Shown here: positions 3,744 through 6,530 of the stretch, piece by piece | Position numbering within the stretch: the stretch's first letter is position 1 | How the letters are laid out: each line of letters starts with the position of its first letter | Source of the DNA: a virus | Taxonomy: Duplodnaviria; Heunggongvirae; Uroviricota; Caudoviricetes | Length of the DNA: 13,310 nt | Virus record (IMG/VR): IMGVR_UViG_2537561622_000007 | Reading direction: 5' to 3' (one strand) | Program-made: the position numbers and the translations under genes | The notes under the pieces: generated by a model | The model's input: only the letters and a program-made list of their open reading frames with translations | What the model was told of the DNA's origin: nothing | The model's database searches: none

Positions 3744-3820
3744 GGCCCTTTAGCTCAGTTGGTCAGAGCGAGCGACTCATAATCGCCAGGTCGCTGGTTC
3801 AAGTCCAGCAAGGGCCACCA
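3744..3820 (+). tRNA. tRNA, anticodon CAU; ileX/ileZ-like (Ile2, lysidine-type) rather than Met
   Basis: Manual cloverleaf fold: 7-bp acceptor GGCCCTT/AAGGGCC, anticodon loop CTCATAA, T-arm GCTGG-TTCAAGT-CCAGC, 3' CCA encoded. Near-identical over most of its length to E. coli ileX as recalled. Confidence 0.8.
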
Positions 3821-3821
3821 A

Positions 3822-3898
3822 CCACCACTAGCTCATCCGGATAGAGCATCAACCTTCTAAGTTGACGGTGCGAGGTTCGAGTCCTCGGTGGTGGGCCA
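3822..3898 (+). tRNA. tRNA-Arg, anticodon UCU
   Basis: Acceptor CCACCAC/GTGGTGG, anticodon stem TCAAC/GTTGA, loop CTTCTAA, T-loop TTCGAGT, CCA encoded. Starts 1 nt after the previous tRNA. Confidence 0.75.
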
Positions 3899-3900
3899 GC

Positions 3901-3976
3901 GCCGACTTAGCTCAGCAGGCAGAGCAACTGACTTGTAATCAGTAGGTCACCAGTTCGATTCCGGTAGTCGGCACCA
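3901..3976 (+). tRNA. tRNA-Thr, anticodon UGU
   Basis: Acceptor GCCGACT/AGTCGGC, anticodon stem ACTGA/TCAGT, loop CTTGTAA, T-loop TTCGATT (one A-C mismatch in the T-stem), CCA encoded. Confidence 0.7.
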
Positions 3977-3979
3977 TAT

Positions 3980-4054
3980 GCGGGCATCGTATAATGGCTA
4001 TTACCTCAGCCTTCCAAGCTGATGATGCGGGTTCGATTCCCGCTGCCCGCTCCA
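3980..4054 (+). tRNA. tRNA-Gly, anticodon UCC (glyT-like)
   Basis: Acceptor GCGGGCA/TGCCCGC, anticodon stem TCAGC/GCTGA, loop CTTCCAA, T-arm GCGGG-TTCGATT-CCCGC, CCA encoded. Looks identical or near-identical to E. coli glyT as recalled. Confidence 0.8.
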
Positions 4055-4168
4055 TGACCTTTCTTAAAGTACTCCAACCTACTGAATCCTAAGGGATACG
4101 GCTTTAAGCCTCCTTGCAGAGTTACTTACTGTAACCCACTGTGTAACCCTCTCAGGGCATGCAGACAT

Positions 4169-5773
4169 ATGATTCAGCTATCCAGTAGTCACAAACTTCC
4201 AGCAGTCTACTATCTCTACCAGCGTAACGGCGTCTACTACTTCCGTCTTAGGGTCAGACAATCAAACAATGATAGAATGACCTCAATATCATTACGGACC
4301 AAGGATAGACGCACCGCTATGGCTTACTCAAGGCACATAAAGGCAGCACTCAAGGCAATACACGCAGACAGACCCAACGCTACCTATGAGGAAATGAGGG
4401 AACACCTTAAGGACATCGCTGAGTGTGAACTGTCTATGGGCCGTTCAGATCTCTTTGAGCCTGACATGAGGGATATCTACCGGGACCAATACGGAGAACT
4501 TGGTGAGAGCCTTACCGATGCTCTGGCTAGTGAGCCGCTAAGCATTGACCAGCATCGTTACATCAATGAGGCCCTGAAGGTGCTAAAAGCCTGTATGAGG
4601 CGTATCGAAGCGGGAGACAGTCAGCTTCTGATAGATTACGTCGATCTTTTTAATGATATTGATAGGCAAGATAACCAAGCAGACTCTGTGTCCCTATCTG
4701 TTAATGCTCCAGAAGTAAAACCAGAAGTTACGCCTAGCATTACCATAGCGAGCCTCTTTGAGCAATACGAAGCGGAGAACTATCAGAACTGGAAGCCTGC
4801 AACCTTAAGGGAAAACAAGGCGTCACACGCTGCGTTAATCGAAATATTCGACCATCTGGGTCTCAATGCAGACGCTAACAGGGCTGACATGCTTAGGGTC
4901 CGTGATGTGCTCCAGCAGTTACCTAGGAACCGTAAGCAGCGCTTCAAGGATGTCCCACTTGCTGACCTGTTGAGCCGTGAAGATAAGACAGATTGTCTGG
5001 ATGTCGTTACCATCAACAACAAGTATCTTATTAAGATGGCTGCTGTCTTTAGGTGGGCTGTGCGCAATGACTTGATTAAAAAGAACATGACTGAGGGTCT
5101 GGAGCTTAAAGTCCCTCAGCGTAAAGCCTCAGGGGCCCGTAACGCCTTCTCTACGGAGCAGGTGGGGCAACTACTGGTCGCAGCTAAGGCATACTCTCAG
5201 AAGACCTCTGGTAAGCCGTATCATTATTATGTTACCGCCTTGGCTGCTATCACTGGGGCGAGACTCAATGAAATAGCCCAACTACAGGTCAAAGACGTCA
5301 GGACCACTGAGGCGGGAACCGTTTATATTCATATCAATGAAGACGATAGTAGTCTACCCGGTAAGAGCATCAAGAACGCTCATAGTGACCGCTGTGTGCC
5401 TCTGGTCGATGGGGCCTATGGTTTTATATTGGCTGACTTTATGGCGCTTGTAGAGACCCGTAGAGGCGCTGACGGTGATGACGCTATGGTGTTCGATGGT
5501 CTGCGTCTCATGAAGAACGGTTACGGTGAGCAGGTGAGTAAATGGTTTAATCGGACGTTGTTGCCTAAAGTCCTCGTAGACCGTAGCGGCTTAGCGTTTC
5601 ACTCGTTTAGACATACAGTTGCGGCCCAGTTAAAACAACATGGGGTCGAGTTGGCGTATGCACAGGCGATCATGGGGCATAGTTCAGGGTCTATTACGTA
5701 CGACCGTTATGCTAAAGAGGTCGAGGTTGATAGGCTGGTCAATGTGATGGCTGATGTTTATAAGGAGACCTAG
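4169..5773 (+). CDS. Tyrosine recombinase / integrase (534 aa)
   Basis: C-terminal catalytic motifs visible: box I Arg in ALAAITGARLNEIAQL, box II HSFRHT, and the nucleophile region GHSSGSITYDRY. Unusually long N-terminal region (~300 aa). Starts 114 bp after tRNA-Gly, same orientation. Confidence 0.85.
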   Translation: MIQLSSSHKLPAVYYLYQRNGVYYFRLRVRQSNNDRMTSISLRTKDRRTAMAYSRHIKAALKAIHADRPNATYEEMREHLKDIAECELSMGRSDLFEPDMRDIYRDQYGELGESLTDALASEPLSIDQHRYINEALKVLKACMRRIEAGDSQLLIDYVDLFNDIDRQDNQADSVSLSVNAPEVKPEVTPSITIASLFEQYEAENYQNWKPATLRENKASHAALIEIFDHLGLNADANRADMLRVRDVLQQLPRNRKQRFKDVPLADLLSREDKTDCLDVVTINNKYLIKMAAVFRWAVRNDLIKKNMTEGLELKVPQRKASGARNAFSTEQVGQLLVAAKAYSQKTSGKPYHYYVTALAAITGARLNEIAQLQVKDVRTTEAGTVYIHINEDDSSLPGKSIKNAHSDRCVPLVDGAYGFILADFMALVETRRGADGDDAMVFDGLRLMKNGYGEQVSKWFNRTLLPKVLVDRSGLAFHSFRHTVAAQLKQHGVELAYAQAIMGHSSGSITYDRYAKEVEVDRLVNVMADVYKET

Positions 5774-5861
5774 AGGAGACCATAGTCTAGGATGACACTT
5801 ACTACAGACCTGTGTGGTCATGTTTTTGACTCATAGTTTTCTCTACTTGTCAAGGGATAAT

Positions 5862-5884
5862 TAATACGACTCACTATAGGGAGA
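5862..5884 (+). promoter_or_regulatory. T7 RNA polymerase promoter, consensus (copy 1); +1 G at 5879
   Basis: TAATACGACTCACTATAGGGAGA, 23/23 match to the T7 class III consensus (-17 to +6). Confidence 0.8.
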
Positions 5885-5982
5885 AGGGACACAAAAAGTT
5901 TTCTCTTCTAGGATGACACTTACTACAGACCTGTGCGGTCATGTTTTTGACTCATAGTTTTCTCTGCTTGTCAAGGGGTAAT

Positions 5983-6005
5983 TAATGCGACTCACTATAG
6001 GGAGA
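5983..6005 (+). promoter_or_regulatory. T7 RNA polymerase promoter (copy 2, one mismatch); +1 G at 6000
   Basis: TAATGCGACTCACTATAGGGAGA, 22/23 (A to G at -13). Confidence 0.7.
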
Positions 6006-6102
6006 AGGGACACAAAAAGTTTTCTCTTCTAGGATGACACTTACTACAGACCTGTGTGGTCATGTTTTTGACTCATGGTTTTCTCTACTTGTCAAGGATA
6101 AT

Positions 6103-6125
6103 TAATACGACTCACTATAGGGAGA
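6103..6125 (+). promoter_or_regulatory. T7 RNA polymerase promoter, consensus (copy 3); +1 G at 6120
   Basis: TAATACGACTCACTATAGGGAGA, 23/23 match. Confidence 0.8.
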
Positions 6126-6319
6126 AGGGACACAAAAAGTTTTCTCTTCTAGGACAACTAACCGTAACTTATCGCATCCTTTCAGGGGCGGGATGACCAA
6201 TTACAGACACCAAGCGTTCTACTTAAAGTGAATGCTTCCTGTGTGCTCTGGGTCAGTCGATAAGTGAATAGCAATAAGACACAATCATCTTAATTATGGT
6301 CTCTAGTCCCTACAGGGGC

Positions 6320-6463
6320 TTAACTTAAAGTTAACTTAAAGACACAATTAAAGATTAACTTATAGTATTACTTAAAGTTAACTTAAAGACACAATTAGAG
6401 ATTAACTTTAAGTATTAAATAAAAGATTTAATTAAAGACCAATTAAAGATTAACTCTAAGGGA
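6320..6463. repeat. AT-rich iteron-like direct repeats (~47-bp period, 2 good copies plus 1 degenerate) full of TTAAAG motifs
   Basis: Core TTAACTTAAAGACACAATTA[A/G]AGATTAACTT..AGTATTA at 6331-6370 and 6378-6417; degenerate third copy ~6424-6463. No ORF of 60 aa or more on either strand between 5774 and 6530. Confidence 0.6.
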
Positions 6464-6530
6464 ATACCTTAAGGGGTGATGATATTTATAATAATCAATC
6501 ACCAAACCTATAGGTCTTCTCTTGAAGTGG

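Follow-up and report, generated by a model that had tools for sequence, protein, structure and literature searches.

A T7 island truncated by IS911 in a phage-borne tRNA-Gly gene, and a possible satellite or interference role for its family

The IMG/VR virus record IMGVR_UViG_2537561622_000007 (Caudoviricetes) is a stretch of 13,310 nucleotides, here called the window, that represents a defective lambdoid prophage with P22/Sf6-type virion genes. A tRNA-Gly gene of this prophage is followed by a tyrosine integrase, three tandem phage T7 promoters and an AT-rich region. We conclude with high confidence that this module is a T7 island cut short by the insertion sequence IS911. The class is already described, though experimentally unexplored; it goes back to Chen and Schneider (Nucleic Acids Res 34:1133, 2006), whose phrase is quoted in PMC2189734. 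The initial annotation of this DNA, made from the letters alone, had proposed a separate integrative element spanning 3744-6522; the separate element stands, but its class had gone unrecognised. The founding description reportedly covers 12 islands of 4-13 kb from nine enteropathogens, with 2-3 tandem promoters each. It is also said to place a tyrosine integrase upstream of the promoters and to give terminal repeats of 17-24 bases. Our membership criteria are those reportedly given in the Chen and Schneider (2006) abstract. By these, the window has tandem T7-like promoters without a polymerase gene, and a tyrosine integrase upstream of them. Of the terminal direct repeats it has the left copy only (4032-4054), the right one being missing because IS911 removed that end, while relatives have both. 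Promoter-driven genes and a size of 4-13 kb are not found in the window copy (2.47 kb) but are found in its siblings and relatives.

3744-4054, plus strand: tRNA array Met/Ile2-CAT, Arg-TCT, Thr-TGT, Gly-TCC (ARAGORN, Rfam)
3980-4054, plus strand: tRNA-Gly(UCC) (ARAGORN)
4032-4054, plus strand: attL core, the tRNA-Gly(UCC) 3' end, TTCGATTCCCGCTGCCCGCTCCA (end of empty-site homology)
4055-6522, plus strand: T7 island, left 2.47 kb, right end lost
4055-4168, plus strand: island left arm, upstream of int, conserved with the glyU attL flank (alignment A1)
4169-5773, plus strand: tyrosine recombinase, 534 aa, an apparently intact open reading frame (ORF) with ATG start (ORF, Pfam, PHROGs)
5786-6154, plus strand: three tandem 121-bp repeats with one phage promoter each (TRF, 3.1 copies, 95% matches)
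5862-5884, plus strand: T7 class III promoter, exact 23-nt consensus TAATACGACTCACTATAGGGAGA
5983-6005, plus strand: T7 promoter with one mismatch, TAATGCGACTCACTATAGGGAGA
6103-6125, plus strand: T7 class III promoter, exact TAATACGACTCACTATAGGGAGA
6158-6212, plus strand: 55-nt non-coding block past the last promoter, conserved across genera
6290-6470, plus strand: AT-rich block of ACTTAAAG and TTAAAGA repeats, the proposed AT-rich half of a T7-type origin
6476-6502, plus strand: inverted repeat GTGAT-(AT-rich)-ATCAC
6523-7770, minus strand: IS911, starting TGAAGTGGTCAAC..., 98.9% identical to annotated IS911 copies, with rve and HTH_Tnp_1 domains

The left boundary of the island is defined by an empty site. 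An island-free prophage of E. coli FDAARGOS_944 (L024) has 98.5% identity to window 3026-4054, and this homology breaks exactly at the CCA end of tRNA-Gly (4054). Holin, lysozyme and Rz genes directly follow the tRNA-Gly there, in place of the island. From 4055 onward the window matches (86-94%) the left end of E. coli islands at the chromosomal tRNA-Gly(CCC) gene glyU, downstream of actS and between actS and the ETT2 remnant. At least 22 complete E. coli genomes carry the same element at this chromosomal position. The empty-site junction and the glyU islands together support the earlier proposal that a separate integrative element, not native lambdoid content, had entered a phage-borne tRNA, and provide the empty-site comparison that had been recommended to define its junction. 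The segment still ends at the IS911 junction (6522), and its start moves from 3744 to 4055, because the tRNA array is prophage DNA, native to the lambdoid phage and outside the island.

The 3' ends of the phage and glyU tRNA genes have TTCGATTCCC...GCCCGCTCCA in common and differ at three of the 23 core positions. Another member of the family, with an integrase of 73% identity, occupies this phage tRNA-Gly on the IMG/VR contig L029, with both attL and attR present (7859-7881; 16770-16792), and so a tRNA-Gly carried by a phage has served as target on at least two occasions. The 3' end of tRNA-Gly is not repeated anywhere in the window; the reported lack of such a repeat in 5774-6522 was thus borne out, and the suggestion that attR lies beyond the IS911 junction agrees with L029, where the island keeps both ends. 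On L029, attL on the phage tRNA-Gly carries a glyU-type core and attR the original phage-type core. The window attL, unlike that of L029, retains the phage-type sequence. Because the attL core types differ, the crossover point or the attP sequence must differ between the two insertions.

The integrase gene (4169-5773) begins 114 nt past the end of tRNA-Gly (4054) in the same orientation, as first annotated, and its product is 100% identical to a 769-sequence cluster named Shigella flexneri integrase. Pfam Phage_integrase (PF00589) covers residues 329-516 (E 2e-17). The R-K-H-R-H/W-Y catalytic set of tyrosine recombinases is present in this C-terminal domain, with candidate catalytic residues R365, K399/K402, H478, R481, H504 and Y514 invariant among 18 homologues (alignment A2). 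The N-terminal ~300 residues had been described as uncharacterised, pending a domain search. That search narrowed the region: residues 15-63 gave a weak DUF6538 match (25.2 bits, cut-off 27) and PHROG integrase profiles span residues 181-517. A PDB sequence search with residues 1-331 returned no match. The AlphaFold model is poor (pLDDT 40, shallow alignment), so only its secondary structure was usable: three strands and a helix in residues 12-67, helices in 73-163, a disordered linker in 164-192 and helices in 193-305. On this low-confidence model, residues 12-67 may form an arm-type DNA-binding domain and residues 193-305 possibly a core-binding domain.

The T7-promoter array and AT-rich region that had been noted behind the integrase proved to comprise two exact promoters and one with a single mismatch, fitting within 264 bases (5862-6125), and a segment of 26.6% GC at 6290-6522 with TTAACTTAAAG-type repeats. 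Sites of the TAATACGACTCACTATAGGGAGA type occurred in none of 200 shuffles of the window. The promoter at 5862-5884 and its flanks share 26-27 identical nucleotides with T7 phi13, phi6.5, phi10 and phiOR (blastn-short against T7). The window promoters match the T7 class III consensus, and their activity is predicted from that match. No phage RNA polymerase gene was found near them among the window ORFs, the largest of which is at most 576 aa; the two largest were domain-checked and carry P22 ejection-protein and SLT transglycosylase domains. Sigma-70 promoters and terminators in 3980-6530 are rarer than in shuffled sequence. The promoters run into IS911 after 400 nt, without any downstream island genes.

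The 55-nt block past the last promoter is identical at 49-53 of 55 positions in Rouxiella, Morganella, Edaphovirga and RIT691, and at 42 of 55 in Klebsiella. It is conserved better than coding DNA, because the integrases of those islands are only 79-87% identical. A hairpin model of the block received weak and ambiguous support, and Rfam recognised no known RNA family in the non-coding part.

T7 replication starts at phage promoters plus AT-rich DNA, and plasmids with such origins replicate after infection. At the T7 origins phi1.1A/1.1B, phiOL and phiOR, studied by the Richardson, Hinkle and Studier laboratories, one or two phage promoters are followed by an AT-rich region; the island is built alike, but its AT-rich block lies ~170-350 nt past the last promoter, whereas that of T7 lies directly past it. 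We aligned window 6290-6522, which leaves out the promoters, locally against the whole T7 and K11 genomes. The best T7 alignments fell at 5952-6026, where the primary origin has its AT-rich part past phi1.1B, and at 414-472, after phiOL. The best K11 alignments fell at 40530-40601 (after phiOR) and 5825-5860 (after phi1.05). Scores were 39 for T7 and 43 for K11, compared to dinucleotide-shuffle means of 26 and 25 (z = 5.0 and 8.2), and none of 150 shuffles reached the observed scores. We propose that the block may supply the AT-rich half of a promoter-primed origin of replication of the T7 type. The GTGAT...ATCAC inverted repeat occurs once in T7 (L003 39330-39353) and once in K11 (L033 40609-40624), ~100 nt downstream of phiOR in both, and there is one copy per E. 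coli and Klebsiella island locus.

Two further repeats were observed in these non-coding regions. The word GACAC (complement GTGTC) has about 10 copies in window 5774-6522. Between int and its promoters, the island of E. coli FT130 (L002 13815-13965) repeats GATGACCATAGGC ~11 times in tandem, each copy with TGGTC on the complementary strand; TGGTC is a preferred recognition sequence of the T7 primase.

The element at the right end of the island has the hallmarks of IS911 (IS3 family): ~1250 bp, orfA and orfB, and terminal inverted repeats starting TGAAGTGG. In the window it is bordered by TCT on one side and CAG on the other. A 3-bp target duplication is lacking, and the sequence now on its right was therefore not its neighbour originally. 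In a sibling locus (L027), the island is uninterrupted at this position. Another sibling (L030, 99.5% identity to window 1-6549) has IS911 at the same TCT, there duplicated, and in the opposite orientation (10340-10350; 11600-11610). Past IS911, L030 continues into the rest of the island, namely a conserved leader and a Rha-type gene cut by IS1. Deriving the IS911 state of the window from that of L030 by simple homologous recombination was considered and rejected; the two states are not interconvertible in this way because their island-facing ends differ. Both attR and the leader motif are absent from the window. Since IS911 has removed the rightward operon together with attR, this island copy is very likely immobile, though its int looks intact. 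Separately, an E. coli / S. flexneri island (L016/L017 9860-11135) has IS911 inside a phage-type promoter, split into GACTAAACTATCACTA and CACTATAGGGA on its two sides.

What the window has lost can be read from the rest of the family, which we surveyed by an integrase scan of one genome per species. This yielded 20 integrase loci in species-representative genomes, most of them at tRNA-Gly(CCC). Loci were found in Klebsiella, Pectobacterium, Morganella, Proteus, Citrobacter, Enterobacter, Buttiauxella, Kluyvera, Rouxiella, Serratia, Lonsdalea, Edaphovirga, Shimwellia, E. coli and Shigella. Fifteen islands of 4.3-7.6 kb were delimited by 23-nt core repeats (L010 and L018 by attR alone), and 23-nt terminal repeats were found in L002, L004, L009, L020, L021 and L029. 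Their gene order is conserved. On the left, int is followed by an optional homologue of the anti-phage protein PD-T7-4/RAZR, the promoter array, the AT-rich block and a leader of ~110 nt. To the right follow a KilA-N or Rha-type gene, a protein of 54-76 aa, sometimes a small membrane protein, a DUF6971 protein, a protein of 330-400 aa and attR. Searches of 11 representative island proteins with Pfam and PHROG found no replicase, terminase or portal. Two parts of this plan that the window copy lacks are located as follows.

L004 8624-9256: PD-T7-4/RAZR homologue, with an equivalent ORF in L007-L009, L011-L014 and L018
L002 14921-15026: conserved leader of ~110 nt, TCATTCTGTTTGC..., with equivalents in 11 other loci (alignment A3)

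The RAZR homologue is full-length (DUF4145; padloc E 8e-99) and stands directly after int, upstream of the promoter array, in nine of the 15 islands; it is absent from the window copy and from the E. coli glyU islands. The leader sits directly upstream of the first gene, whichever that is (KilA-N, Rha or other), and ends just before the ribosome-binding site. It folds into an irregular 31-pair hairpin, five pairs of which show compensatory changes. The hairpin resembles T7 RNase III sites. A class II pause site was also considered for the leader and rejected, TCATTCTGTTTGC being without an exact ATCTGTT. The DUF6971 protein (L004 11149-11607) matches PDB 5EUR (E 1e-50), a solved but uncharacterised structure, and shows a very weak likeness to the single-stranded DNA-binding PC4/Sub1 proteins (E about 0.3).

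The conserved protein of 375-400 aa near the right end had no Pfam, PHROG or PDB sequence match. Its AlphaFold model (25 homologues, pLDDT 63, pTM 0.60) has a core at residues 170-345 that is mostly above 70, and among the matches listed it resembles HK97-fold capsid proteins and encapsulins throughout. On this fold comparison, through which alone the likeness was seen, we consider the protein with moderate confidence to be HK97-fold and capsid-like. Its gene is present in 11 of the 15 delimited islands and absent from the window.

Promoters are a constant of the family, and their type tracks the T7-group phages of the host. It had been recognised that intact relatives might show the T7-promoter region to be unlinked to the integrase. 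We found the opposite: in 22 of 24 related loci, spread over more than 12 genera, int is followed by 1-4 promoters for phage polymerases. In the island of K. pneumoniae ATCC 13883, AATTAGGGCACACTATAGGGAGA equals K11 phi9, phi10 and phi13 and stands beside an exact T7 promoter. Proteus and Kluyvera islands carry a promoter that equals, at 30 of 30 positions, promoters present in multiple copies in Vibrio phage ICP3/N4 and in some Klebsiella phages. In the 73% lineage, islands from E. coli and Shigella have ...AACTATCACTATAGGGA sites, which resemble sites found in multiple copies in Kayfunavirus, Shigella SFPH2 and Citrobacter SH3 phages. Different types also occur together: one island (L004 9264-9840) has K11-type, T7-type and third-type promoters, and another (L012 9270-9890) has four different -17 to -5 regions before CACTATAGGG.

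From these sequence features we infer each step of a possible mechanism. The island would stay silent until an infecting T7-like phage produces its polymerase. That polymerase would then start from the promoter array, which only a T7-group RNA polymerase should be able to use. Transcripts over the AT-rich block may prime replication by the phage replisome, as they do at T7 phi1.1A/B, phiOL and phiOR. In full-length islands, the downstream operon would be expressed as well, giving the KilA-N or Rha regulator, the small proteins, the DUF6971 protein and, mostly, the HK97-fold capsid-like protein. The island might then spread as a satellite, interfere with the phage, or both. Taken as a whole, a truncated T7 island whose family has a polymerase-triggered satellite or interference mechanism seems to us a reasonably probable account. 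For its satellite part, we would put the chances at slightly below even.

Several observations weigh against this account. No island sequence was found in virion-derived data, the IMG/VR hits being prophages predicted in the genomes of isolates. With BLAST in 'distant' mode, likeness to T7-group phages was confined to the promoters, and blastn-short against T7 agreed. The origin likeness consists of short AT-rich words (ACTTAAAG, CTTTAAG) that also occur in ordinary T7-group mRNA leaders, and we identified nothing that mimics a terminal repeat or a concatemer junction. Islands at the short end of the range (L002, L008, L009, L020) are without the capsid-like gene, whose model is of moderate confidence only (pLDDT 63) and whose product showed no similarity to T7 gp10 in a profile comparison.

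The islands might alternatively serve defence only. The array would then sense a T7-group polymerase and drive toxic or interfering genes, causing abortive infection, or titrate the polymerase, and the islands would spread by other means than phage particles. We consider this less likely, although much of the cargo fits it: the anti-T7 PD-T7-4/RAZR homologue directly after int in nine of 15 islands, the KilA-N or Rha proteins and small membrane proteins under the promoters, and a capsid-like protein that could poison helper capsid assembly. Several promoter specificities in one array, as is often seen, are also what a broad sensor would have. However, neither the window nor the E. coli glyU islands contain RAZR, which, being upstream of the promoters, is not driven by them. 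Defence alone would also leave unexplained the origin-like AT-rich block, the integrase and conserved att sites in more than 12 genera, and the repeated insertion into phage tRNA genes, and the island proteins scanned showed no domain for conjugation or mobilisation.

We give little credence to a second alternative, in which the island is the remnant of a decayed temperate T7-like prophage whose integrase, promoters, origin and capsid gene were left by chance, with no biology of their own. The T7-group flavour of the promoters, the origin-like block and the HK97-fold protein would suit such a history. Against it, the same order and size (4.3-7.6 kb) recur in many genera with ORFs and att repeats intact, the non-coding block is strongly conserved, the leader hairpin shows compensatory changes, and neither a polymerase gene fragment nor other T7 coding homology was found. 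Native lambdoid cargo (a moron), or a vector or assembly artefact bringing in T7 promoters, is improbable in the extreme, even though the region occupies the slot that holds stx in Stx phages and exact T7 promoters are common in vectors: the junction with the empty-site prophage is exact, the element recurs at glyU in at least 22 complete E. coli genomes and at 20 species-representative loci, and the promoter flanks are conserved and not vector-like. The glyU islands and the empty-site prophage refute the moron, and the artefact is rejected on the ground that many genomes preserve this context. The T7-promoter module of the window is best regarded as a dead, IS911-truncated copy of a T7 island, and as neither vector contamination nor prophage cargo.

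The surrounding prophage probably comes from Shigella flexneri. Beside the tRNA array, its features are the following.

1-1007: DUF1367 and YbcO genes
about 1826-2982: IS3-family element
ending at 3535: ORF6N antirepressor-like gene
7788-12858, right of IS911: Sf6-type tail needle, DUF2824, and P22 gp7-, gp20- and gp16-like ejection proteins

The prophage lysis, terminase, portal and capsid genes are missing from the interval between tRNA array and tail needle. At 1458-1659, Rfam recognised the c4 antisense RNA, its a1/b1 targets and isrK, a P1/P7-type antirepressor immunity module, which the IS3-family element splits from the ORF6N antirepressor-like gene. The sibling prophage borders on an ABC-3 family permease gene (a Sit-type metal transporter; L030 16833-17564). 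A 2020 review cites Chen and Schneider (2006) in connection with the sit island, and the position of L030 beside this gene agrees with that link between T7 islands and the sit island.

To our knowledge, T7, a textbook virulent phage, is usually thought to be free of satellites. Small islands with perfect T7, K11 and related-phage promoters are nevertheless present in E. coli, Shigella, Klebsiella, Proteus, Pectobacterium and other Enterobacterales, and, given their origin-like block and capsid-fold gene, a life as satellites can be put to a direct test with existing strains and phages. Present-day work on satellites and on defence seems to have overlooked T7 islands, though RAZR is among the cargos. 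In the open literature searched, T7 islands were mentioned only by five papers with Chen and Schneider (2006) among their references, and phrase searches returned no report of T7 satellites. That 2006 paper aside, the literature searched did not contain the HK97-fold protein, the RAZR cargo or the T7/K11 origin alignment.

Among known systems, the closest is the T7 island of Chen and Schneider, with which the island family of the window shares tandem promoters, the lack of a polymerase gene, an upstream integrase, terminal repeats, a size of a few kb and enterobacterial hosts that include Shigella and E. coli; the window copy differs in being truncated by IS911, with neither attR nor promoter-driven genes. 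PD-T7-4/RAZR is an experimentally validated anti-T7 protein (Vassallo 2022, PMC9519451; Nature 2026, PMC13017515). The integrase linked with RAZR is the T7-island integrase in loci such as L004; the window copy, unlike these loci, is without RAZR. Term searches of both reports found no mention of T7 promoters next to the RAZR gene, and in PMC13017515 they found no integrase, mobile element, satellite or island, with 'T7 promoter' in the methods only.

Among phage satellites, PICMI, P4-like elements and classical PICI are also small, tRNA-associated or site-specific, and would need a helper phage. T7 islands differ from them in that Pfam, PHROGs, NCBIfam and PADLOC, run on representative island proteins, found no AlpA, Stl, primase-replicase, Sid/Psu/delta, TerS or redirecting genes, and in that their activation would run through promoters of the helper's own polymerase. 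The capsid-forming cf-PICI, such as EcCI2 (PDB 9gyi), carry a complete head and packaging module and have temperate helpers. The T7-island proteins scanned include no portal, protease or terminase and only the HK97-fold protein, and the promoters carried by T7 islands are those of virulent T7-group phages. We therefore offer, as a tentative proposal that we hold to be more doubtful than the satellite lifestyle itself, that T7 islands may be genuine satellites whose helpers are virulent T7-group phages, and a family apart from P4, PICI, cf-PICI, PLE and PICMI. Such satellites would sense their helper through its polymerase promoters, replicate from a mimic of the T7 origin, combine, when full-length, an HK97-fold capsid protein of their own with helper parts and, in some cases, carry RAZR.

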